Positions 8,979 through 33,807 of a stretch of DNA of 64,000 bases are shown here, in pieces. The stretch lies in assembly GCF_044324875.1 (NCBI RefSeq), contig NZ_CP172185.1; one strand, 5' to 3'. The position numbers and the translations under genes were made by a program. The notes below the pieces were generated by a model. That model was not told the origin of the DNA and did no database searches. It saw only the letters and a list, made by a program, of their open reading frames with translations. This DNA is from Escherichia coli. Lineage in GTDB: Bacteria; Pseudomonadota; Gammaproteobacteria; Enterobacterales; Enterobacteriaceae. Position 1 is the first letter of the stretch; every line of letters begins with the position of its first letter.

Positions 8979-9841
<863 letters not shown>

Positions 9842-9873
9842 TTAGCGGGGGAAGCAAAATGCCTCCCCCGGTT

Positions 9874-9891
9874 GTACTCGCTAAAGAGTAC
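9874..9891 (-). promoter_or_regulatory. TrpR operator (autoregulatory) in trpR promoter
   Basis: 18-bp palindrome gtactcgctaaagagtac; minus strand reads ATCGTACTCTTTAGCGAGTACAAC, matching the Trp operator half-site GTACT...AGTAC, about 50 bp upstream of the trpR start. Confidence 0.75.
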
Positions 9892-9915
9892 GATAGCATA
9901 TCATAAACGTGCGGA

Positions 9916-11853
9916 TCAGTAACGACGTCCCCATTCCGTGGCGCTCATCAATGTCGGTTTATCCCCCATGAAATAGCGGTAGTAAGCGTCATAAGCCAGC
10001 ACGTTCTTCACATAACCGCGCGTCTCGGAGAACGGAATACTCTCGACAAATGCCACTGCGTCGATACGCCCGGCGCTGTTGCCAAGCCAGGTTCGCACCC
10101 GCCCTGGTCCGGCGTTATAAGCTGCTGAGGAGAAAATACGGTTATTACCAAACTGCTGATAAACATATTGCAGGTAACTGGTGCCAATGTTGATGTTCGT
10201 TTCCGGATCCAGCAATTGCCCAGGGCTGCTATAACCAGGAATAGAGAACATCTTCACCGTATGGGTCGCCGTGCCCGGCATAATCTGCATCAGGCCGCTG
10301 GCCCCTACCGGTGATTTCACTTTCGGATTCCAGGCGCTCTCCTGACGGGCAATCGCCATCGCATAGCTTTGCGGGATCTCCTTCCCACTGGTGTAACGTT
10401 TGAAAAGATCGTTGTAAGCCAGCGGGAATCGCTCTTCCAGATGATCCCATAGCTTCCCGGCGATCGTTGCCTGAACGCTAAGATCCCACCATTGGTTATT
10501 GAAAGCATACCGAGCCAGTTGCGCCTGCTCTGTTTTTGACTTGCTCTTCACCAGATTGGCCCACTCGCTACGCGCGGTATTATCGAGATTCCAGTACATC
10601 AACTCGCGCACGCGCGCCATCTCCGGCCCCTGAGTCAAGGTGCTGTCAACATTCTGCGGCGCTTTATCAATCTTCAGCTCATACTCTTCACCGATGCGTT
10701 GTGCTGCAACCATCGGGTAGAAACCACGCTGTTGCATGAGTTGATGCAAAATCTCTTTTGCTTCAGCTTCACGTCCGCGTTCCAGCAGTAAATCCGCCTG
10801 CCAGTAACGCCATTCATCTTTCTCTTTCGCCTCCATCGGCAGACGCGCCAGCCAGGTATTCAGGCCGCGACGATCGCCGGTGCCAAGCGCCATTCGCACA
10901 CGGCGTTCAATAAGCGAAGTAGATTGCGAACGCATAATGGCGTCATCACGCCATTTCGCCTGTTCGTCGGTGACATCGTTGCCCATCAAACGCCAGGCGA
11001 CGATATCGCGCAGCTCCTGAATCTGATCTTCATTAAGCTGCTGCGCCTGGGCAAGCGACGGGATCATCAGCCGTGCATTTTCAGCATCCTGCCGCGCTAC
11101 ACTGGCAAACGCCACCGCCGCCATTTGACGGGTAAAATCGGTCGCTCCGGTTGTACGCGCGAAGGTCAGTACCGTATTAGGATTGTTCGCTAGTGAAATG
11201 ATTGCCGAAGCGATAGTCTGGTAATCGGCAGGCATCTGCCCTGCCAGCACTGTTACCAGGCCAGTGTTACCCGCTTTCATCGCCAGACGGATACGCTCTA
11301 AATACGCCAGCGGATCTTGTTTACCTGACGCACGCCAGACGCTGAATAACTTGTCACAGGCGTTAGGCTGGCTCTTGCCGGTTAGCCACAGCTCTTTCGC
11401 CCCTTGCCAGGCTTCTTCACTCTGCCCGGTGTTCCATTTCGCATAGTAGTAATTACATTGCGCTTCGGTAGTTCCGGGCTTTTCTGGGCTAAAGGCTAAC
11501 AAGCCACGCCAGTCTTCACGCCGCGCCAGTTCATTGACGAAACGAGATTGCAGCGTGCGAGCGGGAGGAAGCGTGGGGTTAGCGCGAACAAAGTTAGTGA
11601 CCGTCACCGCCGGTTGATTCATCAGGTCATCGGTGATCTGACGGTATTCCAGGTAGGGATAAAGCGGATAATCCTTCAGTCCAGGCATCATTTGTTCGAC
11701 CACATCCATTTGTCGATTATCCCAGGCCTGCTTGATTTGGGCGTAGCGGCTACGCTGCTCATCCAGTGAGTCGGCTCGCGCCACGCTGCTGACCGTCAGC
11801 AGACAGACACCGGCAGCCAACAGCCGCCAGGTAACGTGTTTGGCTTTTTCCAC
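9916..11853 (-). CDS. slt: Soluble lytic murein transglycosylase Slt70
   Basis: ORF 9916..11883; probable GTG start at 11853 (agagga about 8 nt upstream) gives 645 aa beginning (V/M)EKAKHVTWRLLAAGVCLLTVSSVARA; C-terminal lysozyme-like domain. Confidence 0.92.
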   Translation of the reverse strand: MEKAKHVTWRLLAAGVCLLTVSSVARADSLDEQRSRYAQIKQAWDNRQMDVVEQMMPGLKDYPLYPYLEYRQITDDLMNQPAVTVTNFVRANPTLPPARTLQSRFVNELARREDWRGLLAFSPEKPGTTEAQCNYYYAKWNTGQSEEAWQGAKELWLTGKSQPNACDKLFSVWRASGKQDPLAYLERIRLAMKAGNTGLVTVLAGQMPADYQTIASAIISLANNPNTVLTFARTTGATDFTRQMAAVAFASVARQDAENARLMIPSLAQAQQLNEDQIQELRDIVAWRLMGNDVTDEQAKWRDDAIMRSQSTSLIERRVRMALGTGDRRGLNTWLARLPMEAKEKDEWRYWQADLLLERGREAEAKEILHQLMQQRGFYPMVAAQRIGEEYELKIDKAPQNVDSTLTQGPEMARVRELMYWNLDNTARSEWANLVKSKSKTEQAQLARYAFNNQWWDLSVQATIAGKLWDHLEERFPLAYNDLFKRYTSGKEIPQSYAMAIARQESAWNPKVKSPVGASGLMQIMPGTATHTVKMFSIPGYSSPGQLLDPETNINIGTSYLQYVYQQFGNNRIFSSAAYNAGPGRVRTWLGNSAGRIDAVAFVESIPFSETRGYVKNVLAYDAYYRYFMGDKPTLMSATEWGRRY

Positions 11854-12188
11854 AAGCGCATCCTCTAAGTGTAAATACATCAATGCAGCGTCATGCCGCG
11901 TAATAGATTTATGCTAACCAGTCATTGCCGTTTACGCCACGTTACGGACACTTTTTTACTTTTATACTCTAAATAATTCGAGTTGCAGGAAGGCGATAAG
12001 TGAGTGAGTCCCCAGGAGCTTACAGAAGTAAGTGACTGGGGTGAGCGAGCGTAAGCGCAGCACATGCAACTTGAAGTATGACGAGTATACTGCGAGGGTG
12101 ATCGACCGGCTGGGATTAGATAAGGAAACAGGCTACACTTCGCCTTTGAAAACTCATCATCACGATAAACATAGAGGCGAAGTCCAAC

Positions 12189-13856
12189 GTGGCTCAATTC
12201 GTTTATACCATGCATCGTGTCGGCAAAGTTGTTCCGCCGAAACGTCATATTTTGAAAAACATCTCTCTGAGTTTCTTCCCTGGGGCAAAAATTGGTGTCC
12301 TGGGTCTGAACGGCGCGGGTAAGTCCACCCTGCTGCGCATTATGGCGGGCATTGATAAAGACATCGAAGGCGAAGCGCGTCCGCAACCGGATATCAAGAT
12401 TGGTTATCTGCCGCAGGAACCGCAGCTGAACCCGGAACACACCGTGCGTGAGTCCATTGAAGAAGCGGTTTCAGAAGTGGTTAACGCCCTGAAACGCCTG
12501 GATGAAGTGTATGCGCTGTACGCCGATCCGGATGCCGATTTTGACAAGCTGGCCGCTGAACAAGGCCGTCTGGAAGAGATCATTCAGGCTCACGACGGTC
12601 ACAACCTGAACGTTCAGCTGGAGCGTGCGGCGGATGCGCTGCGTCTGCCGGACTGGGACGCGAAAATCGCTAACCTCTCCGGTGGTGAGCGTCGTCGCGT
12701 GGCGTTGTGCCGCCTGCTGCTGGAAAAACCAGACATGCTGCTGCTCGACGAACCGACCAACCACCTGGATGCCGAATCCGTGGCCTGGCTGGAACGCTTC
12801 CTGCACGACTTCGAAGGCACCGTTGTGGCGATTACCCACGACCGTTACTTCCTCGATAACGTTGCGGGCTGGATCCTCGAACTGGACCGCGGTGAAGGTA
12901 TTCCGTGGGAAGGTAACTACTCCTCCTGGCTGGAGCAGAAAGATCAGCGCCTGGCGCAGGAAGCTTCACAAGAAGCGGCGCGTCGTAAGTCGATCGAGAA
13001 AGAGCTGGAGTGGGTACGTCAGGGAACTAAAGGCCGCCAGTCGAAAGGTAAAGCACGTCTGGCACGCTTTGAAGAGCTGAACAGCACCGAATACCAGAAA
13101 CGTAACGAAACCAACGAACTGTTTATTCCACCTGGACCGCGTCTGGGCGATAAAGTGCTGGAAGTCAGCAACCTGCGTAAATCCTACGGCGATCGCCTGC
13201 TGATTGATGACCTGAGCTTCTCGATCCCGAAAGGGGCGATCGTCGGGATCATCGGTCCGAACGGCGCGGGTAAATCGACCCTGTTCCGTATGATCTCCGG
13301 TCAGGAACAGCCGGACAGCGGCACCATCACTTTGGGTGAAACGGTGAAACTGGCATCGGTTGATCAGTTCCGTGACTCAATGGATAACAGCAAAACCGTT
13401 TGGGAAGAAGTTTCCGGCGGGCTGGATATTATGAAGATCGGCAACACCGAGATGCCAAGCCGCGCCTACGTTGGCCGCTTTAACTTTAAAGGGGTTGATC
13501 AGGGTAAACGCGTTGGTGAACTTTCCGGTGGTGAGCGCGGTCGTCTGCATCTGGCGAAGCTGCTGCAAGTTGGCGGCAACATGCTGCTGCTCGACGAACC
13601 AACCAACGACCTGGATATCGAAACCCTGCGCGCGCTGGAAAACGCTCTGCTGGAGTTCCCGGGCTGCGCGATGGTTATCTCGCACGACCGTTGGTTCCTC
13701 GACCGTATCGCCACGCACATCCTGGACTACCAGGATGAAGGTAAAGTCGAGTTCTTCGAAGGTAACTTTACCGAGTACGAAGAATACAAGAAACGCACGC
13801 TGGGCGCAGACGCGCTGGAGCCGAAGCGTATCAAGTACAAGCGTATTGCGAAGTAA
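12189..13856 (+). CDS. ettA: ABC-F translation throttle protein EttA
   Basis: 555 aa; two ABC ATPase cassettes (GLNGAGKST; GPNGAGKST; LSGGE signatures); GTG start. Confidence 0.95.
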   Translation: MAQFVYTMHRVGKVVPPKRHILKNISLSFFPGAKIGVLGLNGAGKSTLLRIMAGIDKDIEGEARPQPDIKIGYLPQEPQLNPEHTVRESIEEAVSEVVNALKRLDEVYALYADPDADFDKLAAEQGRLEEIIQAHDGHNLNVQLERAADALRLPDWDAKIANLSGGERRRVALCRLLLEKPDMLLLDEPTNHLDAESVAWLERFLHDFEGTVVAITHDRYFLDNVAGWILELDRGEGIPWEGNYSSWLEQKDQRLAQEASQEAARRKSIEKELEWVRQGTKGRQSKGKARLARFEELNSTEYQKRNETNELFIPPGPRLGDKVLEVSNLRKSYGDRLLIDDLSFSIPKGAIVGIIGPNGAGKSTLFRMISGQEQPDSGTITLGETVKLASVDQFRDSMDNSKTVWEEVSGGLDIMKIGNTEMPSRAYVGRFNFKGVDQGKRVGELSGGERGRLHLAKLLQVGGNMLLLDEPTNDLDIETLRALENALLEFPGCAMVISHDRWFLDRIATHILDYQDEGKVEFFEGNFTEYEEYKKRTLGADALEPKRIKYKRIAK

Positions 13857-13865
13857 TGCGTAAAA

Positions 13866-13899
13866 TGCCGGATGCGGCGCGCCAGCATCGCATCCGGTA
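13866..13899. terminator. REP-like palindromic hairpin downstream of ettA
   Basis: gccggatgcggcgcgccagcatcgcatccggt: imperfect inverted repeat typical of REP units. Confidence 0.5.
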
Positions 13900-14011
13900 T
13901 TAGTTAAATGATTAGTCCCCGGAAAAAAGCAAAATTTTCTTTAAGCGTATTAGCTCAGATGCGGACTGACATCTCAAATCAAGCGGGAACTCATGGTTCC
14001 CGCTTAACGTT

Positions 14012-14899
14012 TTATTCACCGCGCAGGATCTGGCGGAAATGGGAAACCAGCGGACGTTGGTTGGCTTTATGCCAGGCTGCCCATAATTGCGTTGAATAAT
14101 TCATCCACGGCAATTCACGTAATACCACCCCTTCCGGCGCATTATGACGCAGACTATTTTGAATTAAGGCCAGACCTAATCCCGCAGCGACCAAACCTAA
14201 TGCCGTGAGGGGTTCACCCGCTTCCAGGCGAATATCAGGATTAAACCCGGCGTTAACACAGGCGGCGACAAAATGATCGCGAGAATGCGCATCGTCGTTA
14301 TGAATCACCGCAATCCACTGCTCATCGCCAAGTTGTGACGCGACAAGGTTTTCCTCCTGCGCCAGAGGATGATTTTGCGGTAAGGCCAACAACATTCGAT
14401 CATCCAGAACCTGAATATATTCCAGATCCTGCTCGCTGTCGGTGGGCGGCGTATCGACCAGAGAAAAATCGAGACTGCGCTGACGCAGGCCTTCAATCTG
14501 GGTAGCCGGTGGTTGGCTGTAAAGAGCGATATGCACATTCGGACGCGATACACGTAACGTACGTAGCGCCGTAGAAAGCACACCGGAATGCATGGCGTTT
14601 TCGATATAGCCAATACACAAGCCACCATCTTCCCCCCGTCCCAGGCGTTTGCCTAACGACTCCAGGCGGTTGGCGTGTGTCAGCAACGAACGTGTTTCGG
14701 CAAGGAATGTCTGTCCATCAGCGGTCAGGCGAATGCGCTGCTGATTACGCTCAAACAGCGTCAGTCCCAGCCGTTCTTCCAGTTGTGCAATCTGGCGGCT
14801 CAGCGGCGATTGCGAGATATGTAATCGCTCGGCTGCGCGTCCCACGTGCTCTTCTTCTGCGACCACCACGAAGTACTTCAGTTGGCGTAAATCAATCAT
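14012..14899 (-). CDS. LysR-family transcriptional regulator (accessory)
   Basis: ORF 14012..15028; likely start at Met 14899 giving MIDLRQLKYFVVVAEEEHVGRAAERLHISQSPLSRQIAQLEERLG... (LysR HTH); divergent from the aldo-keto reductase gene. Confidence 0.85.
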   Translation of the reverse strand: MIDLRQLKYFVVVAEEEHVGRAAERLHISQSPLSRQIAQLEERLGLTLFERNQQRIRLTADGQTFLAETRSLLTHANRLESLGKRLGRGEDGGLCIGYIENAMHSGVLSTALRTLRVSRPNVHIALYSQPPATQIEGLRQRSLDFSLVDTPPTDSEQDLEYIQVLDDRMLLALPQNHPLAQEENLVASQLGDEQWIAVIHNDDAHSRDHFVAACVNAGFNPDIRLEAGEPLTALGLVAAGLGLALIQNSLRHNAPEGVVLRELPWMNYSTQLWAAWHKANQRPLVSHFRQILRGE

Positions 14900-15031
14900 G
14901 TTAGACCTCAAAGGACTTAAGTCAGACGAATTATGTCCTATCAAGTCACAACCTCGCAAGGTATTGTGATCCACGTCACAGGGCAATAGCAAAAAACGCC
15001 CGAACCCAAACCGAATAATTGAGGACATCTT

Positions 15032-16042
15032 ATGAGCATCAAAAATTTACTTCCCGGCAAAATTGGCTTAGGCGGCGCACCACTCGGCAACATGTTCCGT
15101 GCCATTCCGGAAGAAGAGGCCCACGCCACCGTGAGCGAAGCCTGGAACCTGGGTGTGCGTTACTTTGATACCGCGCCGCTGTACGGCTCTGGCCTTTCTG
15201 AAATCCGCATGGGTGAAGCGCTGTCTCAGTATCCACGCGATGAATACGTTCTGAGTAGCAAAGTCGGTCGCATCGTGCTGGACGAAATGGAAGATCCGGC
15301 AAAACGGGATTTCGGTGAAAAAGGTGGCCTGTTCGAACACGGCCTGAAAAACAAAATTCTGAATGACTACTCTGCTGACGCCACGCTGCGCTCGATTGAA
15401 GACAGCCTGAAACGCCTGAAAACAGATCGTCTGGATATTGTCTGGATCCACGACCCGGCGCAGGACTTCTACGGTGACAGCTGGCTGGAGCAGTTCAACA
15501 TAGCCCGTACCGGTGCGTTTCGTGCGCTGACGCGTTTGCGTGACGAAGGTGTGATTAAAGCCTGGGGACTGGGTGTCAACCGCGTCGAACCTTGCGAACT
15601 GACGCTGGCGCTGGACGAACCGAAGCCGGATGCGTTCCTGCTGGCGGGGCGTTATTCCCTGCTGGATCACGAACGTGCGCTGCAACGCCTGATGCCAGAA
15701 GCACTGGAACAGAACGTGGATATTGTTGTGGGCGGTCCGTACAGCTCTGGCGTACTGGCAGGCGGCGAGCACTTTGAATATCAGAAAGCTTCTGCGGCCA
15801 TCCAGCAGAAAGTGGCGCAAATTAACGCCATTGCCACACGTTTCAATGTGAACGTTAAAGCGGCTGCGCTGCAGTTCGCGCTGGCAAACCCGGCCGTTGC
15901 AGCGGTTATTCCTGGCTCCAGCCGTCCTGGCCGTATGGCAGAAGATCTGGCTGCACTGAATGCGCCTGTTCCGGCTGAATTCTGGGCAGAAATGCGCCGT
16001 CAAAATCTGGTTGCGGAAAACGCTCCGCTGCCGACCCGTTAA
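15032..16042 (+). CDS. Aldo-keto reductase family oxidoreductase (accessory)
   Basis: 336 aa; AKR-like pattern (FDTAPLYG, IVWIHDP, LAGRYSLL); divergently paired with LysR regulator. Confidence 0.85.
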   Translation: MSIKNLLPGKIGLGGAPLGNMFRAIPEEEAHATVSEAWNLGVRYFDTAPLYGSGLSEIRMGEALSQYPRDEYVLSSKVGRIVLDEMEDPAKRDFGEKGGLFEHGLKNKILNDYSADATLRSIEDSLKRLKTDRLDIVWIHDPAQDFYGDSWLEQFNIARTGAFRALTRLRDEGVIKAWGLGVNRVEPCELTLALDEPKPDAFLLAGRYSLLDHERALQRLMPEALEQNVDIVVGGPYSSGVLAGGEHFEYQKASAAIQQKVAQINAIATRFNVNVKAAALQFALANPAVAAVIPGSSRPGRMAEDLAALNAPVPAEFWAEMRRQNLVAENAPLPTR

Positions 16043-16061
16043 TCAACCTGGTGAGAAAACG

Positions 16062-16858
16062 ATGAAACTGGATCTGACAGGTAAAGTCGCGGTGGTCAGC
16101 GGCTCAACCTCCGGCATTGGGCAGGGTATCGCCGCCGGACTGGCAAAAGCAGGCGCAACGGTGGTTGTCGTCGGCCGTAAACAGCGCGGCGTTGATGATG
16201 CCATGGCTGCGATTGCGGCACAAACTCCCACGGCGTCACTGCGCGGCGTGGTGGCCGATCTCAGCACCGAAGACGGCGTGGCTGCGCTGATCGCTGCAGT
16301 CCCAACGGCTGATGTGCTGGTCAATAATCTGGGCATTTTTAACGATAAAGATTTCTTTAGCGTTCCGGATGATGAGTGGATGCACTTCTATAACGTCAAC
16401 GTCCTCTCCGGCGTTCGTCTGGCGCGTCACTATGCGCCAGGCATGACGGAACAGGGCTGGGGCGGATTATCTTTGTCTCGTCTGAATCCGGCGTGGCAAT
16501 TCCTGGCGACATGATCAACTACGGCGTCACCAAAGCCGCGAATCTGGCGGTTTCTCATGGTCTGGCGAAACGACTGGCAGGGACCGGTGTGACCGTCAAC
16601 GCCATTCTGCCAGGGCCAACCTTTACCGATGGCCTGAAAGAGATGCTGGCGGATGCCGCTGCACAATCGGGACGCAGTGCGCGTGAACAGGCCGATGAGT
16701 TTGTTAAAACCTCGCGTCCGAGCTCCATCATCCAGCGTGCGGCGGATGTGGAAGAAGTGGCGAATCTGGCGGTTTATCTCGCGTCACCGCTTTCCTCGGC
16801 AACCACAGGGGCAGCCCTGCGCGTCGATGGCGGCGTCGTCGACACCCTGACAATGTAA
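16062..16858 (+). pseudogene. Short-chain dehydrogenase/reductase disrupted by a -1 frameshift
   Basis: N-terminal part MKLDLTGKVAVVSGSTSGIGQGIAAGLAKAGATVVVVGR (Rossmann TGxxxGIG) ends at 16514; C-terminal part (AIPGDMINYGVTKAA..., YxxxK active site) runs in a different frame to 16858; frames join at the G-run ctggggcgg near 16457-16463. Confidence 0.75.
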
Positions 16859-16883
16859 CCCTATAAATTAAGAGAAAATTATC

Positions 16884-17300
16884 ATGGCTAAAACAACTGT
16901 ATCGATCGAAATTCCGGCTTCTGCCGACGCCGTATGGCAATTGATGGGCGGCTTTGATGCGCTGCCAGACTGGCTGCCGTTCATCCCGAAAAGCGTAGTG
17001 ACAGAAGGCGGTCGCGTTCGTTCGCTGACAACCTCTGACGGCGGCACTGTGGTTGAACGTCTGGAAGCGTTTGATAACCGTCAACGCAGTTATACCTATT
17101 CCATTATTCAGGCACCGTTCCCGGTGGTGGATTACCTCTCCACCATTACCGTTCATGAAACCGCCGACAGCCAGGTTTCCCGTGTGGAATGGTTCGGTGA
17201 ATTCACCCCGGTGAATGTGACGAACGAAGAGGCCGAAGCGCTGTTTACCGGCATCTATCGGGATGGTCTCAAGGCGCTGAAGGACAACTTTGTTGCCTGA
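16884..17300 (+). CDS. SRPBCC (Bet v1-like / polyketide cyclase-like) family protein
   Basis: 138 aa; MAKTTVSIEIPASADAVWQLMGGFDALPDWLPFI... Confidence 0.7.
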   Translation: MAKTTVSIEIPASADAVWQLMGGFDALPDWLPFIPKSVVTEGGRVRSLTTSDGGTVVERLEAFDNRQRSYTYSIIQAPFPVVDYLSTITVHETADSQVSRVEWFGEFTPVNVTNEEAEALFTGIYRDGLKALKDNFVA

Positions 17301-17457
17301 TGCGATCGACAGGCGTCGGAACGTCCGGCGTCTGATTATTAACAAAAACAGAATAGTCTATTGCCATTTGTATCATTTATGTTATCAGGCAGTAGGCGTA
17401 TTCTCTCCCCATCGCGTTAATAAACGCCAAACAATTAAGACACTCTGGAATATAAAC

Positions 17458-17670
17458 ATGAAAACGATCATCGCAATTTTTACGGCTTCTCTTTTCTCTG
17501 TCGCGGCGTTTAACGCATCGGCGCAAAGCGTGACAGCAACCGGTACAACACTGGATTCCGCTGAAGCGGTTATTGCGCAGAAAGCGAAAGAGATGAACGC
17601 CTCTGAATACAAAATTACCAGCGCTCGCATGGGCAATACCGTCACCATGAGTGCCGAACTGTACAAATAA
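17458..17670 (+). CDS. DUF1471 (YdgH/BhsA/McbA-like) small secreted protein
   Basis: 70 aa with signal peptide MKTIIAIFTASLFSVAAFNASA and ...ASEYKITSARMGNTVTMSAELYK. Confidence 0.7.
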   Translation: MKTIIAIFTASLFSVAAFNASAQSVTATGTTLDSAEAVIAQKAKEMNASEYKITSARMGNTVTMSAELYK

Positions 17671-17694
17671 CCGCACGAGAGACCCATTACGTAA

Positions 17695-18001
17695 TTTGCT
17701 AAATATGCGCTGAATGCGTTGCCATTAATAAACCGTATTGTAATGCCACCGATGACGCGTTCCCGTGCGGGTGACGTTGCGACTGACATAATGGCGGCCT
17801 ATTACGCGCAGCGCGCCAGTGCTGGACTTTTCATTAGCGAAGGTACGCAAATCAGCAGAAGCGCTGCGCATAATTTTCCACGGCACGCTGATTTACTCCG
17901 GTAAAGACACCAAAGCGCGCGCCGAACAGGCGCTGGCTAACGGCTAGTCGGATCTGATTGGATTTGGTCGTCCGTATAGTGCCAAAAGCGGAAGTTGGTA
18001 G
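17695..18001 (+). pseudogene. Remnant of Old-Yellow-Enzyme family NADH:flavin oxidoreductase (NemA-like), internally deleted with stop codons
   Basis: Frame reads ...ALPLINRIVMPPMTRSRAGDVATDIMAAYYAQRASAGLFISEGTQIS (OYE N-terminus) then ...YSGKDTKARAEQALANG*SDLIGFGRPY... (OYE C-terminal motifs); about 250 central codons missing. Confidence 0.65.
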
Positions 18002-18097
18002 TTTCAGCCTATGTTGATAAACGGGGAGCCGGTCAGCACGTAAAGAGATTTTTTTGTACTGCTATGGCCCGATCAAAAATCGATTGAGCCGAATGTG

Positions 18098-18469
18098 CTA
18101 GCTATCTCCGAAGATAATTTTTTCGAGCTCCTGCAAGTCCTGCTGTGATTGCTCGTTAAGGTTAGCCTCTAACTTGTCGTACCATGTAAGCAGTTTCTTG
18201 CCAAGTGGTGTCAAAACCGAGCCTCCACCTTTACTGCCGCCTGTTGATGTAATTACCACCGGCTTACCTATGCCTTTATTGAGTGTATCAATCAGGAGCC
18301 ACGCCCTTTTATAGGGGATTCCCAGATCTTTTGCGGCAGCTGAAAGGGAATGAAACCCATCTATAGCTCGTAAAAGATCGATTTTCCCCGGTCCCAGCGA
18401 GATATTGTCATTAATGTAGATTCGGGGTCTGACCAAAATAAAATCAAACATAAGCGTTTTTTTATTCAT
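18098..18469 (-). CDS. ModE N-terminal-domain-like winged-helix regulator (no Mop domains)
   Basis: ORF 18098..18487; GGAG about 9 nt before Met at 18469; LGPGKIDLLRAIDGFHSLSAAAKDLGIPYKRAWLLIDTLNKGIGKPVVITSTGGSKGGGSVLTPLGKKLL resembles ModE N-domain (GGKGGGGAVLT). Confidence 0.7.
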   Translation of the reverse strand: MNKKTLMFDFILVRPRIYINDNISLGPGKIDLLRAIDGFHSLSAAAKDLGIPYKRAWLLIDTLNKGIGKPVVITSTGGSKGGGSVLTPLGKKLLTWYDKLEANLNEQSQQDLQELEKIIFGDS

Positions 18470-18494
18470 TCTGAGAACTCCGTGCAAAGTATTT

Positions 18495-19301
18495 TTATCG
18501 GGTGTGTTTGAAAGTTTTGATGGCAGAAATAAGAAGGATCACACCAAGTAAAGTCATAAGGGCTTTAAGTGGGAACAAGCCGACCATAAGTCCACCAATT
18601 GCTGCACCAATTACTGAACCAATAACCATCCATACAAACAGTGTCCTTTCTTGCTTCAGAATCAGGAAAGCATCTGCATTTATATAACGGGAAAAGCCAA
18701 CAATCATTGTTGGCAGGCTAATCATCAGTGAAAGACTTCCGGCCAGTTTAATATCTTCCCCGAAAAGGATAACGATTGTGGGGATAAGAAGCTCTCCGCC
18801 AGCCACTCCGAGCAATGCTGCGACTATCCCGATAAAGCCCCCTGATACCACCCCCACAATAATCATGGCAAGGCCAGGTTGAAATAACCCGCCTGAAATA
18901 CTGTGCAACGGCATCTAGGCTTCAGAGAGCATGACAAAAGACAGTAAAACAAGCAGGATCAGAATGATTCTGTCCAGCCAGATTCTGGACATCTTTATGG
19001 CACGACCTGCGGCCCACCATGCTCCAATAAGACTTCCTGCCAGCAAATTTATGACAATATCAAGATGCGCCACCAACTGATCAAAAGATATAGATTTTGT
19101 TCGGAAAATTAAAGCAATAGCCACCACGGCGAGACTCATTGCTTTGTTAAAAATGACGGCTTCCAGAGAAGGGATTTTGAAACTACCGATCAGTACGGGA
19201 AGGCGAAATTCAGCCCCTCCGAGGCCAATCAACCCACCTAAAGCCCCTATTACCGCGCCTGAGAAAAAACCTTTACCATTCCTGTTTGAAACTGACGACA
19301 T
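18495..19301 (-). pseudogene. TauE/SafE-family (DUF81) membrane permease interrupted by in-frame amber codon
   Basis: Two adjacent same-frame ORFs (19301..18915 and 18914..18495) separated only by TAG at 18917-18915; each half has Gly-rich transmembrane helices; combined about 268 aa. Confidence 0.7.
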
Positions 19302-19714
19302 GCGTTCCTCTCTAATTCGTTATGTCTTTTTTGACATAACGACAAGCATAGCATTGCAGAACAGGCGTCTGGTAGTTGCTTGTAAAGACGAGGATTGATC
19401 CAGGTTAAAATTTATTCTATTAACCTGCTCTCCGTTGTTTAACACACCACGATTTATGTGATGCTTTCATGAGAAATTAAAACAACTAAGAACTTCCGCT
19501 TCTCGCTCGAAGCGGACTGTCAGATTTGATTGCATTCTGGCTACGCAACTGGTCGGTTGGAGTATGAAGTTGCTCACGAATAGCCTTAGCATCCGCAATT
19601 TCGTAGCGGGTCACCCGTGCAGGTTCTTTCTAATCTCAACAGCCTCTTCCAGAGAGTTTTTCAACTCATCAAAAAACTCAATTTATACCTCGCCTTTGAG
19701 CCGTTTCATCACGG

Positions 19715-20947
19715 TTATCTCTGCTCCCCCATCATCTCCCGCACAAGTTCCACGCAGCGCAGGAAACGGCTGTCATAATCGTCCTCTTCAACACGCACGA
19801 ATTCGATATTGTTCTCTTCCAGCATCTCCACCAGCAAGTTCTGGAACTCTTTGCGATCCACCGAACTACCGAGGCTGCGTAAACCATCCGCCACCCACGG
19901 GGTGTTGTTCTCCAGCAAGATAACCAGATCAAAACGGTATTCATCAATCAGCGCCTGCACGAACGGATGCTCACGCCCTTCGTACTTTTTGCAGAACGCC
20001 TGGGTAGTGACAAAATCAGTGTCGATAAACGCCACTTTATTGGCGTATTTCACTGCAAAATCAATATATTGCGCGTGTCCCAGCGCGATTTTATCGTAGT
20101 CAGAATACTGCAATGCGATCTCATCACCGCCGAGGTGTGAAAAGACATAATCGCGACCATATTCCCACGCACTGGTGGTATTGAAGATATTGGCAAGTTT
20201 GTTTACCAGGGTGGATTTACCGCTCGACTCGCCGCCAAGGATCGCCACGGTACGCACAAAAAACGGCTTCACTTCAGTGGGGATATATTCCCAGTAGCGG
20301 AACGGGTTTTCGCGGATCTGCGCACCGCTGATACTCATAAAGGTGCGTTTCGGATCGACCAGCACCGTTTCGATCCCCAGATGTTCCATATACTGTGGCG
20401 CATCGGCTTCTTCCGAGGTGTAGATCAGGTCCGGCTGGATCCCCTTTTCAGCCATAAACTTTTTGATGCCATTGCTCCACACATCCCAGCCGTGCGGATA
20501 TGGCTCCATGCCCTCTTCGTTGAAAGCATGAATACGGATATTTTTCTGATATTTAAAGGTTTGCAATAACCAGCGCAGACGATCCGGCACGGTGGGCTGC
20601 TGCGACATGGCGCTGTCTTCAAACAACGCACGGTCACGGGTATCGTCAAAGCCCATAATGATATGCAGCTCGTCAACCTGGCTACAGGCGCGCTGGATAA
20701 GGTAGATATGTCCGGTATGTAGCGGGTAGAACTTACCGAATACGACACCAATGGTTTTCTTCTGCCGGGGAAATTCAAGCCCCAAAAAACGGTGCAACGC
20801 CTCCAGCTTTTGCGCGCTGGGGCTTTTAATTTTGGCATTCAGTAACTGGCTTAAATACCCTTTGGTCATACCGCTGGCATCAGCTACCTGCTGTAGCGTG
20901 CAGCCCTGTTGCTTGATGGCAGTTTTCAGGTAATCAAATGACGACAT
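19715..20947 (-). CDS. nadR: Bifunctional NMN adenylyltransferase / ribosylnicotinamide kinase and transcriptional regulator NadR
   Basis: ORF 19715..20968; 410 aa from MSSFDYLKTAIKQQGCTLQQVADASGMTKGYLSQLLNAK... (HTH), HTGH nucleotidyltransferase motif, P-loop GGESSGKST. Confidence 0.95.
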   Translation of the reverse strand: MSSFDYLKTAIKQQGCTLQQVADASGMTKGYLSQLLNAKIKSPSAQKLEALHRFLGLEFPRQKKTIGVVFGKFYPLHTGHIYLIQRACSQVDELHIIMGFDDTRDRALFEDSAMSQQPTVPDRLRWLLQTFKYQKNIRIHAFNEEGMEPYPHGWDVWSNGIKKFMAEKGIQPDLIYTSEEADAPQYMEHLGIETVLVDPKRTFMSISGAQIRENPFRYWEYIPTEVKPFFVRTVAILGGESSGKSTLVNKLANIFNTTSAWEYGRDYVFSHLGGDEIALQYSDYDKIALGHAQYIDFAVKYANKVAFIDTDFVTTQAFCKKYEGREHPFVQALIDEYRFDLVILLENNTPWVADGLRSLGSSVDRKEFQNLLVEMLEENNIEFVRVEEDDYDSRFLRCVELVREMMGEQR

Positions 20948-20967
20948 ATCTCCCTCCGTATCTCTCA

Positions 20968-22350
20968 TTATAAGTCGTCGAACACGCTAAGCGCGTCGGA
21001 GAGTTTTTTAACGCCAAAAATCTGCATCCCTTCCGGCGCTTTTTTCGGCACGTTAGCCGCCGGAACAATCGCCCGCCGAAAACCGTGTTTCGCCGCTTCA
21101 GAGATTCGTTCCTGGCCGCTGGGCACCGGGCGGATCTCCCCTGCCAGCCCGACTTCACCAAACACCACCAGATCCTGCGGTAGCGGTCTATCACGCAGGC
21201 TGGAAACCATCGCCAGCAGTAACGCTAAGTCGGCACTGGTTTCCGTCACCTTCACGCCGCCGACCACGTTAACAAATACATCCTGATCGGCCATTTGCAA
21301 CCCACCGTGACGGTGCAGCACCGCCAGCAGGATTGCCAGACGGTTTTGCTCCAGCCCTACTGCGACGCGGCGTGGATTCGCCATCATCGAGTGATCGACC
21401 AATGCCTGGATCTCCACCAGCAGTGGACGCGTTCCTTCCCATACCACCATCACTGAGCTACCGGAGGTCACTTCATCACCGCGGCTTAAAAAGATGGCGG
21501 AAGGGTTGCTAACTTCACGCAGCCCCTGTTCGGTCATCGCGAAGACGCCCAGCTCATTCACCGCGCCGAAGCGGTTTTTATGGCTGCGTAAGGTGCGAAA
21601 ACGGGAGTCGGCATCGCCATCCAGAAGCACCGAACAGTCGATACAGTGTTCCAGCACTTTAGGGCCAGCCAGCGAGCCATCTTTGGTTACGTGCCCAACC
21701 ATGACAATCGCCACACCGCGCGTTTTGGCGAAGCGCGTCAGATAAGCCGCCGTTTCACGCACCTGCGCCACGCTGCCAGGCGATGACTGAACATCCGCCA
21801 TATGCATCACCTGGATCGAGTCAATTACCATCAGCTTCGGTTGCTCTTCTTCGGCAATCAGGCAGATTTGTTCGATGCTGGTTTCAGACAGCATATTGAG
21901 ATTGTCAGTCGGCAGGCCAAGGCGATGAGCGCGCATTGCCACCTGTTGCAGCGACTCTTCGCCGGTGACATACAGCGTTTTCATCTGCTGGGCCAGTTTG
22001 CACAGCGTTTGCAACAGCAGCGTGGATTTCCCCGCGCCTGGGTTACCGCCAATCAGAATGGCGCTTCCCGGCACCACCCCGCCGCCTAATACGCGGTCGA
22101 ACTCTTTAAATCCGGTGGAAAAACGCGGCAGCTCTTCAAGGCTGATGTCGGAAAGTTTCTGGACTTTTGCCACCCCGGCGCTACCGGCATAGCCACTGAG
22201 ACGCTCGTTACGCGCCACCGTTGGCGACGCTGCAAGACGCACCTCGGTGATGGTGTTCCAGGCATGACAGGCGCTGCACTGCCCCTGCCAGCGCGGATAA
22301 TCGGCCCCGCATTCATTACAAACAAAGGCGCGTTTTGGAGCTTTTGCCAC
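20968..22350 (-). CDS. radA: DNA repair protein RadA/Sms
   Basis: ORF 20968..22398; GTG start at 22350 gives 460 aa (V/M)AKAPKRAFVCNECGADYPRWQGQCSAC... (zinc finger), Walker A GGNPGAGKST, Lon-like C-terminus. Confidence 0.95.
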   Translation of the reverse strand: MAKAPKRAFVCNECGADYPRWQGQCSACHAWNTITEVRLAASPTVARNERLSGYAGSAGVAKVQKLSDISLEELPRFSTGFKEFDRVLGGGVVPGSAILIGGNPGAGKSTLLLQTLCKLAQQMKTLYVTGEESLQQVAMRAHRLGLPTDNLNMLSETSIEQICLIAEEEQPKLMVIDSIQVMHMADVQSSPGSVAQVRETAAYLTRFAKTRGVAIVMVGHVTKDGSLAGPKVLEHCIDCSVLLDGDADSRFRTLRSHKNRFGAVNELGVFAMTEQGLREVSNPSAIFLSRGDEVTSGSSVMVVWEGTRPLLVEIQALVDHSMMANPRRVAVGLEQNRLAILLAVLHRHGGLQMADQDVFVNVVGGVKVTETSADLALLLAMVSSLRDRPLPQDLVVFGEVGLAGEIRPVPSGQERISEAAKHGFRRAIVPAANVPKKAPEGMQIFGVKKLSDALSVFDDL

Positions 22351-22398
22351 GGTGTACCTCGTTAATGCTGTGCCGCCCGCAGGATGACGGGCGAGCAA

Positions 22399-23367
22399 TT
22401 ACTTCTGATTCAGGCTGCCAGAGAGGATGCAGAATACCCCCATCAGGTCAGCGTGACGGATGGTGACTTCCGTCTTTTCATTCACTTTTGGCTTGGCATG
22501 GTAGGCAATCCCCAGCCCTGCCGCTTTGATCATCGGCAGGTCATTGGCTCCATCACCAATCGCCACGGTCTGCGCCAGCGGGATTTCATACTCCTGCGCG
22601 AGGCGAGTCAGAGTTTTCGCTTTGTACTGCGCGTCTACGATGTCGCCGATCACATTGCCGGTAAATTTACCGTCCATGATCTCCAGTTCATTGGCTACCA
22701 CGGCTGTCAGGCGCAGCTTGTCGCGCAGGTATTCAGCAAAGAAAGTAAAGCCACCGGAGGCAATCGCCACTTTCCAGCCCAGCGTTTCCAGCTTGAGTAC
22801 CAGTTGCGTTAAGCCTGGCATCAGCGGCAGATTTTCACGCACCTGTTGCAGAATATTGGCGTCAGCGCCTTTCAGCGTCGCCACGCGGCTGCGCAGGCTG
22901 GCGGTAAAATCGAGTTCGCCGCGCATCGCCCGTTCGGTTACCTCCGCCACCATCTCGCCCGTTCCGGCCAGTTTGGCAATTTCATCAATACATTCAATCT
23001 GGATGGCGGTGGAATCCATGTCCATCACCAGCAAACCCGGCGTGCGCAGGTGCGGGATTTTCCCCAGCGGCGCGACATCCAGCTGCGCTTCGTGAGCCAG
23101 GCGCGTAGCCCGCGCGGTGAGTGAACCTGCCAGACGAATCACCTGATAATCTTCCACGCACCAGGCGGCAACAATCACCATCGCCGCGCCCAGTTTGCTC
23201 TGGTATTGGGTCAGACGTTGTTTATCCAGCCCACGACCATACAGCAGCCAGCCGCTACGACCTGCGTGGTAATCCAGTGGCATCACTTCATCACCACTTA
23301 ATGAAAGAGGCAGCCCCGGCCATAAAGAGACATCTTCAGGCAGGTCGCACCAGGTAATGTTAGGCAT
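22399..23367 (-). CDS. serB: Phosphoserine phosphatase
   Basis: ORF 22399..23505; 322 aa from MPNITWCDLPEDVSLWPGLPL...; HAD motif LVMDMDSTAI. Confidence 0.95.
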   Translation of the reverse strand: MPNITWCDLPEDVSLWPGLPLSLSGDEVMPLDYHAGRSGWLLYGRGLDKQRLTQYQSKLGAAMVIVAAWCVEDYQVIRLAGSLTARATRLAHEAQLDVAPLGKIPHLRTPGLLVMDMDSTAIQIECIDEIAKLAGTGEMVAEVTERAMRGELDFTASLRSRVATLKGADANILQQVRENLPLMPGLTQLVLKLETLGWKVAIASGGFTFFAEYLRDKLRLTAVVANELEIMDGKFTGNVIGDIVDAQYKAKTLTRLAQEYEIPLAQTVAIGDGANDLPMIKAAGLGIAYHAKPKVNEKTEVTIRHADLMGVFCILSGSLNQK

Positions 23368-23472
23368 TAAGGCTCCTGTAAAATCGTTCGAAGCAGGGAA
23401 AATAACGCATGAGGCTACCTTGTATCCATTGCTTCTGGCAACATTAAGTCTCAAATTTTCAAAGGGTGGAAG

Positions 23473-24117
23473 ATGGCTCGCACAAAACTGAAATTCCGGC
23501 TGCATCGGGCAGTGATTGTCCTGTTCTGTCTTGCCTTGTTAGTGGCGCTGATGCAGGGAGCGTCATGGTTTAGTCAAAACCACCAGCGACAGCGTAATCC
23601 TCAGCTGGAAGAACTGGCCCGCACCCTGGCGCGTCAGGTGACGCTGAACGTTGCACCGCTGATGCGTACCGACTCACCGGATGAAAAACGCATTCAGGCG
23701 ATCCTCGATCAGTTAACGGATGAAAGCCGCATCCTCGACGCGGGCGTGTATGACGAACAAGGCGATCTTATCGCCCGTTCTGGCGAAAGCGTCGAAGTGC
23801 GCGACCGGTTGGCGCTCGACGGCAAAAAAGCGGGCGGCTATTTTAACCAGCAGATTGTCGAACCCATTGCCGGGAAAAACGGACCGCTCGGCTATCTGCG
23901 CCTGACGCTCGACACCCATACGCTCGCCACCGAAGCCCAACAGGTGGATAACACCACTAACATTTTACGCCTGATGTTGCTGCTCTCACTGGCAATCGGC
24001 GTAGTGCTGACCCGCACGCTGCTACAGGGTAAACGCACCCGCTGGCAGCAATCGCCCTTCCTGTTAACCGCCAGCAAACCGGTGCCGGAAGAGGAAGAAA
24101 GCGAGAAAAAAGAGTGA
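23473..24117 (+). CDS. ytjB: Membrane protein YtjB (Smp)
   Basis: 214 aa; MARTKLKFRLHRAVIVLFCLALLVALMQGASWF... Confidence 0.85.
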   Translation: MARTKLKFRLHRAVIVLFCLALLVALMQGASWFSQNHQRQRNPQLEELARTLARQVTLNVAPLMRTDSPDEKRIQAILDQLTDESRILDAGVYDEQGDLIARSGESVEVRDRLALDGKKAGGYFNQQIVEPIAGKNGPLGYLRLTLDTHTLATEAQQVDNTTNILRLMLLLSLAIGVVLTRTLLQGKRTRWQQSPFLLTASKPVPEEEESEKKE

Positions 24118-24144
24118 CCCATTACTACAAGAAAGGAAATCGTT

Positions 24145-25161
24145 ATGTCCACATTACGCCTGCTCATCTCTGACTCTTACGATCCGTGGTTTAACCTGGC
24201 GGTGGAGGAGTGTATTTTTCGCCAGATGCCCGCCACGCAGCGCGTTCTGTTTCTCTGGCGCAATGCCGACACGGTAGTGATTGGTCGCGCACAGAACCCG
24301 TGGAAAGAGTGTAATACCCGGCGGATGGAAGAAGATAACGTCCGCCTGGCGCGGCGCAGTAGCGGTGGCGGCGCGGTGTTCCACGATCTCGGTAATACCT
24401 GCTTTACCTTTATGGCTGGCAAGCCGGAGTACGATAAAACTATCTCCACGTCGATTGTGCTTAATGCGCTGAACGCGCTCGGCGTCACCGCCGAAGCGTC
24501 CGGACGTAACGATCTGGTGGTGAAAACCGCCGAAGGCGACCGCAAAGTCTCAGGCTCGGCCTATCGCGAAACCAAAGATCGCGGCTTCCACCACGGCACC
24601 TTGCTGCTCAATGCCGACCTTAGCCGCCTGGCAAACTATCTCAATCCGGATAAAAAGAAACTGGCGGCGAAAGGCATTACGTCGGTACGTTCCCGCGTGA
24701 CCAACCTCACCGAGCTGTTGCCGGGGATCACCCATGAGCAGGTTTGCGAGGCCATAACCAAGGCCTTTTTCGCCCATTATGGCGAGCGCGTGGAAGCGGA
24801 AATCATCTCCCCAGACAAAACGCCAGACTTGCCAAACTTCGCCGAAACCTTTGCCCGTCAGAGTAGCTGGGAGTGGAACTTCGGTCAGGCTCCGGCGTTC
24901 TCACATCTGCTGGATGAACGCTTCACCTGGGGCGGCGTAGAACTGCATTTCGACGTTGAAAAAGGCCATATCACCCGCGCCCAGGTGTTTACCGACAGCC
25001 TCAACCCCGCGCCGCTGGAAGCCCTCGCCGGGCGACTGCAAGGCTGCCTGTACCGCGCGGATATGCTGCAACAGGAGTGCGAAGCGCTGTTGGTTGACTT
25101 CCCGGAACAGGAAAAAGAGCTACGGGAGTTGTCTGCGTGGATAGCGGGGGCGGTAAGGTAA
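24145..25161 (+). CDS. lplA: Lipoate-protein ligase A
   Basis: 338 aa; [57 protein letters not shown]... Confidence 0.95.
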
Positions 25162-25192
25162 CTCGCTGATTAAAATATCCAGGGAAGGAAAT

Positions 25193-25456
25193 ATGATCGA
25201 TCTGGAAAACCAGGAACGGGAGATTATCAATTTAATGTTCAGCCAGGGTATATCATGGCTAACCGCCGTGCGTATCAGGCATAAACTATCACTTGCTGAA
25301 GTAAGTAAAATGTTAGGTATCTCCATTAATTCTCTAATACAGATCGAAAAGACGGAACGGCTTAGTTCAAACATCAAAAGCAAAATGGCAGGAATTTATG
25401 GTTGTCCACCAGAGTTGCTGATATGCCCTTCCTGGATGACGGCTGAACATAAATGA
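25193..25456 (+). CDS. XRE-type helix-turn-helix small protein (87 aa), at the K-12 yjjJ position
   Basis: agggaagg 5 nt before ATG; LSLAEVSKMLGISINSLIQIEKTE resembles HTH_XRE; followed by AT-rich non-coding DNA. Confidence 0.55.
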   Translation: MIDLENQEREIINLMFSQGISWLTAVRIRHKLSLAEVSKMLGISINSLIQIEKTERLSSNIKSKMAGIYGCPPELLICPSWMTAEHK

Positions 25457-25551
25457 ATAGATTCGTGAATAGATACTTGAATGTATTTTATTTTCTATCC
25501 ATATGAAAAATAATAGTGAATCTATAAATCAGTTGCTATTGATGAATAGAT

Positions 25552-25582
25552 ACTAAAAAGCCGGAGCAGTCCCCCACTCCGG
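25552..25582 (-). terminator. Rho-independent terminator downstream of deoD
   Basis: Minus strand gccggagtgggggactgctccggc followed by ttttt. Confidence 0.65.
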
Positions 25583-25616
25583 CTTAACACGACGTTCGCC
25601 TTTCAGCAAAACACAA

Positions 25617-26336
25617 TTACTCTTTATCGCCCAGCAGAACGGATTCCAGTGCGATTTTGATCATGTCGTTGAAGGTGGTCTGACGCTCAGCGGCAGTGGT
25701 CTGCTCGTGAGTGCGGATGTGGTCAGATACGGTACAGATGGTCAGGGCTTTCGCGCCAAATTCTGCAGCGACGCCGTAGATACCAGCTGCTTCCATTTCC
25801 ACGCCGAGGATGCCGTATTTTTCCATCACGTCGAACATTTCGCCGTCCGGAGAGTAGAACAGGTCAGCGGAGAACAGGTTACCAACGCGAGCATCAACGC
25901 CCAGTGCTTTAGCCGCGTCTACCGCGTTACGCACCATGTCAAAGTCAGCGATAGCGGCAAAGTCATGGTCTTTAAAACGGATGCGGTTAACTTTGGAATC
26001 GGTGCAGGCACCCATACCGATAACGACGTCGCGCAGTTTTACGTGTGGCAGAACAGCGCCACAGGAGCCTACGCGGATAATTTTCTTCACGCCGAAATCG
26101 GTGATCAGTTCTTTGGTGTAGATGGAGCAGGACGGGATACCCATACCGTGACCCATTACGGAAATTTTGCGGCCTTTGTAAGTACCGGTGAAGCCCAGCA
26201 TACCGCGAACGTTGTTCACTTCACGGGCATCTTCAAGGAAAGTTTCAGCAATATACTTCGCACGCAGCGGGTCGCCTGGCATCAAAACTACGTCAGCGAA
26301 ATCGCCCATTTCTGCATTAATGTGTGGGGTAGCCAT
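25617..26336 (-). CDS. deoD: Purine nucleoside phosphorylase DeoD
   Basis: 239 aa; [55 protein letters not shown]... Confidence 0.97.
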
Positions 26337-26339
26337 TGT

Positions 26340-26412
26340 TTTATCCTTATCAACATGTTTTCACCCTCTCCCTGTGGGAGAGGGCCGGGGTGAGGGCATC
26401 AAGCCGCACCCA
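26340..26412. repeat. Intergenic palindromic element between deoB and deoD
   Basis: ccctctccc-tgt-gggagaggg inverted repeat followed by ccggggtgagggc. Confidence 0.5.
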
Positions 26413-26415
26413 TTA

Positions 26416-27660
<1,245 letters not shown>

Positions 27661-32515: not shown

Positions 32516-33807
<1,292 letters not shown>

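Follow-up and report, generated by a model that had tools for sequence, protein, structure and literature searches.

The stretch of Escherichia coli chromosome analysed here, a 64-kb window (64,000 nucleotides of contig NZ_CP172185.1, assembly GCF_044324875.1), contains a 5,858-bp segment at 13857–19714, between ettA and nadR, that is very probably a real islet of accessory genes, a mosaic gained by horizontal transfer at a site already known to vary in E. coli, and that is undergoing the ordinary decay of dispensable genes. The preliminary description of this DNA had proposed a metabolic islet in reductive decay, and this proposal is supported by the patchy distribution of the segment, by lesions that are concentrated within it, and by independent damage in other lineages. 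An inserted accessory segment with intact and broken genes is indeed present, and it is built from three or more modules that differ in age. The islet is not a new kind of system; an ordinary process is at work at a known variable locus. It provides a textbook case of a small islet in a recombination-prone gap, with layered assembly and genes lost one point mutation at a time, in which four lesions can be dated relative to one another and an allele can be seen to have spread between lineages after it was broken.

The window has the gene order arcA-creDCBA-rob-slt-ettA-[islet]-nadR-radA-serB and continues to yjiA. It is collinear with 4.588–4.642 Mb of K-12 at 97–99% identity, i.e., it is an E. 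coli-type chromosome segment. Since ettA ends at 13856 and nadR, on the minus strand, ends at 19715, the segment is exactly the ettA–nadR intergenic interval. In K-12 MG1655 (locus L002), ettA and nadR are convergent and 307 bp apart with no annotated gene between them; the flanks align with those of the window at 96.8–97.7%, and the segment is missing. The adjacency of the two genes in K-12, which the preliminary description had stated, is thus borne out by the classical annotation, and all the genes that it named in the gap (LysR, aldo-keto reductase, SDR, SRPBCC, DUF1471, Old Yellow Enzyme, ModE-N winged helix and TauE) were found. It had overlooked remnants of nadS at both edges of the islet and the last nine codons of a toxin gene beside nadR. 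The intact reference for base-by-base alignment from ettA to nadR was strain WP4-S18-ESBL-07 (NZ_AP022087.1; L001), from which the window differs by 134 substitutions and three indels; the species-level set for presence counts comprised the 5,426 complete E. coli genomes in RefSeq. Family names were taken from NCBIfam, from Pfam on identical loci or proteins (HTH_1 and LysR_substrate, Aldo_ket_red, adh_short, Polyketide_cyc2, YdgH_BhsA-like, Oxidored_FMN, and TauE on both halves) and from the RefSeq annotation of the intact copy. The features of the locus are as follows.

12189..13856, plus strand: ettA, the conserved and intact left flank; 100% amino acid identity to K-12 EttA, and named ettA in homologous loci.
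13913..13948, minus strand: C-terminal remnant of nadS, NadS residues 80–91, TLKENFAFFRGL; located by tblastn with the intact NadS of L003, also in L001 and L005.
13981..14005, no strand assigned: hairpin with an 11-bp stem just 3′ of the LysR gene, a terminator-like edge of the left cassette, from a terminator scan.
14012–14899, minus strand: LysR-type regulator, 295 aa, intact; PF00126 and PF03466, RefSeq annotation of the WP_000566334 type.
15032–16042, plus strand: aldo-keto reductase (AKR), 336 aa, intact; PF00248.
16062–16858, plus strand: short-chain dehydrogenase/reductase (SDR) pseudogene with a −1 frameshift; adh_short.
16884–17300, plus strand: SRPBCC/Polyketide_cyc2 small ligand-binding protein, 138 aa, intact; PF10604.
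17458–17670, plus strand: DUF1471 (YdgH/BhsA/McbA family) small secreted protein, 70 aa, intact; PF07338.
17719–18040, plus strand: remnant of an Old Yellow Enzyme (OYE; NemA-like alkene reductase), with about 50 N-terminal codons at 17719–17868 and a C-terminal-like piece at 17879–18040 in the +1 frame with in-frame stops.
18098–18469, minus strand: ModE-N-terminal-like winged-helix regulator (wHTH), 123 aa, intact; TIGR00637 at 81.2 bits, with no Mop/TOBE domain.
18495–19301, minus strand: TSUP/TauE permease pseudogene, TGG to TAG at codon 129; PF01925 on both halves.
19495..19516, minus strand: hairpin TCCGCTTC-6 nt-GAAGCGGA at the right edge of the variable slot, from the terminator scan.
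19546..19682, minus strand: N-terminal remnant of nadS, residues 1–49; located by tblastn with intact NadS and from reading frames.
19683..19712, minus strand: tail of a ParE/RelE-type toxin gene, the last nine codons VMKRLKGEV*, directly after the nadR stop; weak similarity, with its position matching that in L003 and K-12.
19715..20947, minus strand: nadR, the conserved and intact right flank; 99.8% amino acid identity to K-12 NadR.

The target that the islet interrupts is recognizable. A toxin–antitoxin (TA) pair, parE-3/yiaG-2, has been described in the nadR–ettA gap, together with the 307-bp gap of K-12 (PMC7232551), and in many E. coli (L003-type loci) this gap contains nadS preceded by a ParE/RelE-type toxin gene. 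The intact NadS of L003 has 94 residues and scores 182.6 bits against an NCBIfam cutoff of 60. In the window, NadS residues 1–49 and 80–91 flank the islet, which sits inside nadS and replaces codons ~50–79; compared with L001, the N-terminal remnant has lost its start codon and has suffered 1-bp and 10-bp deletions. The ParE/RelE–NadS islet of B2 and adherent-invasive E. coli (AIEC) strains such as LF82 (parE-3/yiaG-2, ‘TA30’) occupies the same gap, and the window retains pieces of both of its genes in the same order and orientation. However, the toxin gene of the window is cut to nine codons, and 5.6 kb of foreign DNA separates the two parts of nadS, which is also frameshifted, so that no TA function can remain; a type II system would have both genes whole and side by side. 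Nor is the gap in K-12 truly empty. It is in a degenerate state and contains (L002 4549–4855) a truncated 55-codon nadS, annotated by PGAP, and the same last codons of the toxin gene. Expression of nadS in K-12 has been reported in a PIRT-seq study (PMC12350097). The original occupant of the nadR–ettA gap was thus a ParE/RelE-type toxin gene with nadS, an antitoxin-like gene of the HTH type, behind it.

The degenerate K-12 gap and the existence of deletion derivatives of the islet (L005 and L024) would also be compatible with a segment already present in the ancestor of E. coli and lost by deletion from K-12 and most other strains. This explanation survives best among the alternatives and is still improbable. 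An intact nadS is found at the same site in other strains, and the islet splits its two ends. Moreover, the left module (14033–17670) is present in just 476 of the 5,426 complete genomes (8.8%; short probe at the SDR site) and lies at unrelated loci in other genera, and the composition is heterogeneous, as is usual for an islet: the GC content is 55.1% in the left module and 44.3% in the right module, compared with 51.7% in the window. Insertion therefore remains the preferred reading, and the nadR–ettA gap is shown to be a multi-cargo slot on the ruins of a TA pair.

The left module is a portable cassette. The unit LysR-AKR-SDR-SRPBCC-DUF1471 is located between csiR and crl in Klebsiella pneumoniae and between a GNAT gene and yicC in Yersinia alsatica, and in Serratia marcescens the cassette follows srfABC, with a glyoxalase gene in place of DUF1471. 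These cassettes have four or five genes in the order and orientation of the window and share 77–79% nucleotide and 69–93% amino acid identity with it, but they occupy unrelated chromosomal sites, and no OYE remnant or frameshift is present in any of them. The LysR protein combines HTH_1 with a LysR substrate-binding domain, and its gene diverges from the operon across an intergenic region of 132 bp; its best NCBIfam matches are LysR-family models, every one under its cutoff. The AKR protein has a full-length PF00248 domain (Pfam on the identical protein), and among solved structures it comes closest to L-galactose dehydrogenases and IolS. The SDR protein hardly differs from an unnamed SDR in the PDB (8g9m), and the SRPBCC protein matches PDB 3cnw, ‘XoxI’ of B. 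cereus (4e-52). The NCBIfam matches of the DUF1471 protein, to BhsA, RclB, and YhcN, are weak. The LysR protein would sense a small molecule and would switch on two NAD(P)(H)-dependent oxidoreductases and a small ligand-binding protein. Together, the AKR, SDR, and SRPBCC proteins would convert a sugar-like or other carbonyl compound.

Between the window lineage and four other E. coli carriers, the ratios of nonsynonymous to synonymous polymorphism (pN/pS) are 0.04 for LysR, 0.03–0.11 for AKR, 0–0.05 for SDR, 0.05–0.16 for SRPBCC, and 0–0.05 for DUF1471. Since these values lie within 0–0.16 and the differences are mostly synonymous, the left cassette has been functional and under strong purifying selection in E. 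coli. It is thus a working operon that this lineage has just begun to lose and not an old wreck.

The second module is an old OYE/alkene-reductase remnant common to all E. coli carriers examined. Its N-terminal part matches NF007899 at positions 17–66 of 365 (E = 1.8e-13), and the C-terminal-like piece adds just 7.6 bits to that score and is weakly supported; a complete FMN-binding TIM barrel of ~365 residues is not encoded. RefSeq labels the corresponding sequence in other strains a pseudogene, ‘alkene reductase, incomplete’, and the remnant is present in all other E. coli islets examined. A search with the remnant peptides gave short fragments only, and neither an intact orthologue nor an ancestral OYE arrangement was found by it. 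The islet also includes a variable slot: the sequence of other strains follows that of the window as far as 17926–17997 and resumes at 19491–19508, the latter being the right-hand breakpoints of L004, L005, and L023. Where the window has the wHTH and TauE genes, L004 has a GNAT gene, L023 has a DUF2846 gene, and L005 has nothing. The slot breakpoints coincide with an imperfect inverted repeat of 34 nt (17970–18003/19484–19517; 76% complementary). We do not claim that the right module is transposon- or cassette-like: the unit common to a Proteus plasmid and Citrobacter (18097–19345) lies within the repeat and excludes it, and the argument from the repeat is further weakened by the fact that one arm is the terminator-like hairpin.

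The third module, at the right, consists of a low-GC ModE-N-like repressor and a TSUP permease that arrived recently in a slot occupied by other cargo in other strains. It is present in 20 of the 5,426 complete genomes (18097–19345). The right part differs from L001 at two positions in 1.8 kb, compared with 1.5% for the left module; because it is nearly identical between E. coli lineages, the right module has been acquired recently. Its nucleotide identity is 81% to the Proteus plasmid and 73% to Citrobacter chromosomal loci. The permease is assigned to its family by Pfam and RefSeq names, NCBIfam having given no matches. It carries PF01925 and the repeat of four plus four transmembrane segments (TMS) known from TSUP proteins (4+4 topology; PMC7176098): residues 11–38 align with residues 150–177, the first helix of each half, and hydropathy fits this arrangement. 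An Rfam scan of the islet detected nothing, including no molybdenum cofactor (Moco) riboswitch 5′ of the permease gene.

Compared with intact orthologues, two genes carry a disabling lesion. In the SDR gene, GGGGG is reduced to GGGG at 16457–16460, which causes a −1 frameshift at codon ~133 and a stop at 16512–16514. The intact SDR has 265 residues, with YGVTK at residues 154–158 (Y154/K158); because the frameshift precedes the catalytic YxxxK, the window product cannot be active, and the Rossmann cofactor site and the catalytic Ser/YxxxK are no longer found in one polypeptide. The frameshift probably also lowers the expression of the downstream genes. In the permease gene, a plus-strand C>T change at 18916 converts TGG (Trp129; codon at 18915–17) to TAG. 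The intact allele encodes 268 residues, and the window has no open frame of ~270 codons here. The same gene has a unique missense change, A182E (18757), at a position occupied by A, V, L, or Q in 13 homologues. The intact E. coli islets of WP4-S18-ESBL-07, PCN033, and ST2747 share the site, the gene order, and the OYE and nadS remnants with the window (98.4–98.7% nucleotide identity over 5,858 bp). However, they encode the 265-residue SDR and the 268-residue TauE, whereas the window has the frameshift, the amber codon, and two more indels in the nadS remnant.

The lesions can be placed in time by close relatives. Three NCBI assemblies that were reached via the exact AKR protein (L008, L009, and L011) are 99.985% identical to the window over 9032–22041; all three bear the amber codon, and all have five Gs and an intact SDR gene. 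Since these assemblies do not have the frameshift, it is very recent. The exact truncated SDR product led to L012, a read-based Logan assembly of ERR1512459 that matches the window at 100% identity over 12060–26514 (14.4 kb) and has both lesions; its contig is seen in four samples. The amber codon is thus present in L008–L012, and the frameshift occurs beyond the window in L012 only. Short probes across each lesion were compared with the complete genomes that bear the respective site (476 for SDR and 20 for TauE); because no probe matched at 100%, neither lesion is present in any complete E. coli genome. In a large protein collection, the TauE halves occur on ~88–91 contigs and the intact 268-residue protein on at least 1,000. 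A further assembly, L010 (GCA_027274645.1), was compared over 12088–22031. Its islet differs from that of the window at two positions in 5.8 kb (the extra G and one SNP), amber codon included, whereas the flanks differ by ~2% in ettA and ~4% in nadR–radA. Because a near-identical islet lies between flanks that diverge by 2–4%, the broken allele has moved between lineages by recombination.

From these comparisons, the OYE and nadS/toxin damage, present in every E. coli carrier examined, came first, followed by the lineage-wide TauE amber and lastly by the SDR frameshift of a sub-lineage. The permease gene acquired the amber at codon 129, and the resulting allele now occurs in at least two genomic backgrounds; the loss of one G from the SDR gene, and with it of the catalytic residues, followed within a sub-lineage.

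The position of the amber invites a different explanation, in which the change is tolerated or selected, either as a fission into two assembling 4-TMS half-transporters or because it inactivates an importer of oxyanions. The two homologous repeats of the 4+4 fold (PMC7176098) are joined by a loop in which the stop is located, the native ATG of codon 130 follows the stop directly (TAG-ATG) and could allow termination–reinitiation, and the allele is known from ~90 contigs and from two genomic backgrounds. However, no recognizable Shine–Dalgarno sequence precedes this ATG, the C-terminal half carries the unusual A182E change, and the intact allele outnumbers the interrupted one at least tenfold. 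Among 80 species loci, no such split is conserved; the few split TSUPs there come from draft genomes or metagenome-assembled genomes and are broken at other positions. Furthermore, persistence is uninformative about selection because the islet copies are nearly identical. Plain loss of the permease is preferred, and a tolerated or selected change is slightly less probable than the ancestral origin rejected above.

An error of sequencing or assembly, with the genes really intact, is even less credible. It is very unlikely for the amber, a substitution found in at least four independent assemblies and ~90 contigs. For the frameshift it is unlikely: the lesion is a 1-bp homopolymer change, a classic error type, and the three 99.985%-identical assemblies have G5 and not G4, but it is exactly repeated in the read-based Logan assembly, and a run of four or five Gs is short to provoke an error in the consensus. 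Both lesions therefore persist outside this sequence.

Decay in the window is concentrated in the islet. Of 50 K-12 core genes in the window, 49 are full-length without stops or frameshifts, and the remaining one, hipH, is absent; therefore, there is no general genome decay in the window. Two of the seven otherwise complete islet genes are broken, compared with none of the 50 core genes (Fisher p = 0.013), and with the OYE and nadS remnants counted, the number rises to four of nine (p = 0.0003). The islet has also been damaged independently in other lineages: L024 (strain E300010) has a deletion that fuses SDR and SRPBCC and an insertion sequence (IS), IS1, beside nadR; three pig isolates have IS200C insertions in the islet; and L005 has a 1.58-kb deletion that removed the right module. 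Since both modules have been disabled amid intact core genes, the pattern points to relaxed selection on genes that are dispensable. The best identity of the window to any complete E. coli genome is 98.7% for slt–ettA, 98.9% for nadR–lplA, and 99.2% for fhuF–opgB; because core identity tops out at 98.4–99.2%, the source is an E. coli lineage without a complete-genome representative in RefSeq. Near-identical draft assemblies are GCA_022376235.1, GCA_900482385.1, and GCA_002467655.1. Genome-wide reductive evolution of a host-restricted, Shigella-like lineage is the least likely explanation of all, since, unusual as the lineage is in its core identity, a Shigella-like source genome was rejected on the 49 of 50 intact K-12 genes, with hipH simply absent, on the lack of repeated IS-sized elements in the 64-kb window, and on the NCBI label of the relatives, E. 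coli.

The permease provides the sole lead of wider reach. Its orthologues with 63–66% identity lie within molybdate ABC operons. In Methylomonas the order is modA-TSUP-modB-modC, in Azospirillum TOBE-modA-TSUP-modB-modC, and in Burkholderia wHTH-modA-modA-TSUP-modB-modC, where ModA, ModB, and ModC all score above NCBIfam equivalog cutoffs. The first gene of the Burkholderia operon, the wHTH gene, encodes a protein 57% identical to that of the window, and the fourth gene encodes a TSUP protein that is 65% identical. In Dickeya, the TSUP–wHTH pair adjoins mobB and a molybdopterin oxidoreductase gene, and the wHTH protein is 76% identical to that of the window; the Citrobacter plasmid pR56A (L045) has one TSUP-containing mod operon. 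Compared with modE-modABC loci that include TSUP, E. coli holds the regulator–permease pair only, with the permease gene transcribed first and interrupted and with no modA, modB, or modC beside it.

This association was examined in species-representative genomes at 80 TSUP loci (L031–L110) annotated with phmmer, among which 31 with at least 270 bits were regarded as close orthologues. Genes of the mod type lie on the same strand within 3.5 kb at 20 of the 31 close-orthologue loci, a short wHTH gene is present at 14, and either mod genes or a wHTH gene at 25 (81%); mod genes occur at 7 of the 49 more distant TSUP loci. Five further ModA candidates all pass TIGR01256. The clade shows 58–90% identity and extends from Enterobacterales to alpha- and beta-proteobacteria. 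In the literature searched, no paper linking TSUP/TauE to modABC was found. The window permease resembles the TauE/SafE sulfite/sulfoacetate exporters and other TSUP proteins (TC 2.A.102) in PF01925, a length of ~270 residues, and the 4+4 repeat. Unlike for those exporters, its context points to molybdate-type oxyanions and not to sulfonate metabolism. From gene neighbourhood, the right module may function in molybdate/tungstate-type oxyanion handling under a ModE-N-like repressor. There is an even chance, in our judgement, that ABC uptake systems for molybdate/tungstate have in this TSUP clade a fourth membrane component, or a partner, that has so far gone unrecognised, with ModE-N-like regulator-modA-TSUP-modB-modC as the typical gene order; the E. 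coli islet would then carry a free-standing regulator–permease version. The association suggests a testable function for a large, poorly characterised transporter family. The Rhodobacter oxyanion permease PerO was considered as a TSUP/DUF81 member that would tie TauE to molybdate and was dropped, as its published placement is in the DASS family.

Several points weigh against parts of the reading given here. Regarding insertion, no integrase or transposase gene, direct repeats, or att-like site were found in the window, and the sole bracketing repeat is the 34-nt inverted pair at the right-hand slot. Regarding decay, the SDR frameshift is backed by one further assembly only, possibly from the same isolate as the window; the 476 islets were screened for these same lesions and not for overall integrity; and with two point lesions, relaxed selection is indistinguishable from selected loss. 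The left-cassette members are functionally uncharacterised, and their nearest solved structures are structural-genomics entries. Regarding molybdate, the TIGR00637 match of the wHTH protein (E = 4.5e-23) is under the cutoff of 98.5 bits, so that the protein is ModE-N-like and not a filed member. It covers positions 12–94 of the 263-residue ModE model, and the di-Mop/TOBE part, the molybdate-binding domain, is missing. In E. coli, Citrobacter, and Serratia, no modABC genes accompany the TSUP–wHTH pair, and neighbourhood is the sole basis of the proposed role.

Other differences from K-12 were noted in the window. Past yjiA, the mrr/hsd ‘immigration control’ region of K-12 is substituted by other DNA. 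On the minus strand, a 699-aa open reading frame (ORF) at 60757–62853 matches the PADLOC defence model ‘Orf5’ (E = 8e-213), and its 244-residue neighbour at 59979–60710, also on the minus strand, has a weak PDC-S24 match. The absent hipH (yjjJ), a HipA-like kinase toxin gene located between lplA and deoD in K-12, is replaced at 25161–25448 by ~290 bp with an 87-codon ORF that has no family match. The yjjW–yjjV gap contains five tandem copies of a ~100-bp unit (32517–33073), and K-12 has a repeat of this kind as well. At 9500–9510, the convergent ends of trpR and yjjX are unlike those of K-12: yjjX is one codon longer, and the K-12 alignment breaks there. The relatives L008 and L010 show a difference of ~125 bp at the same spot.

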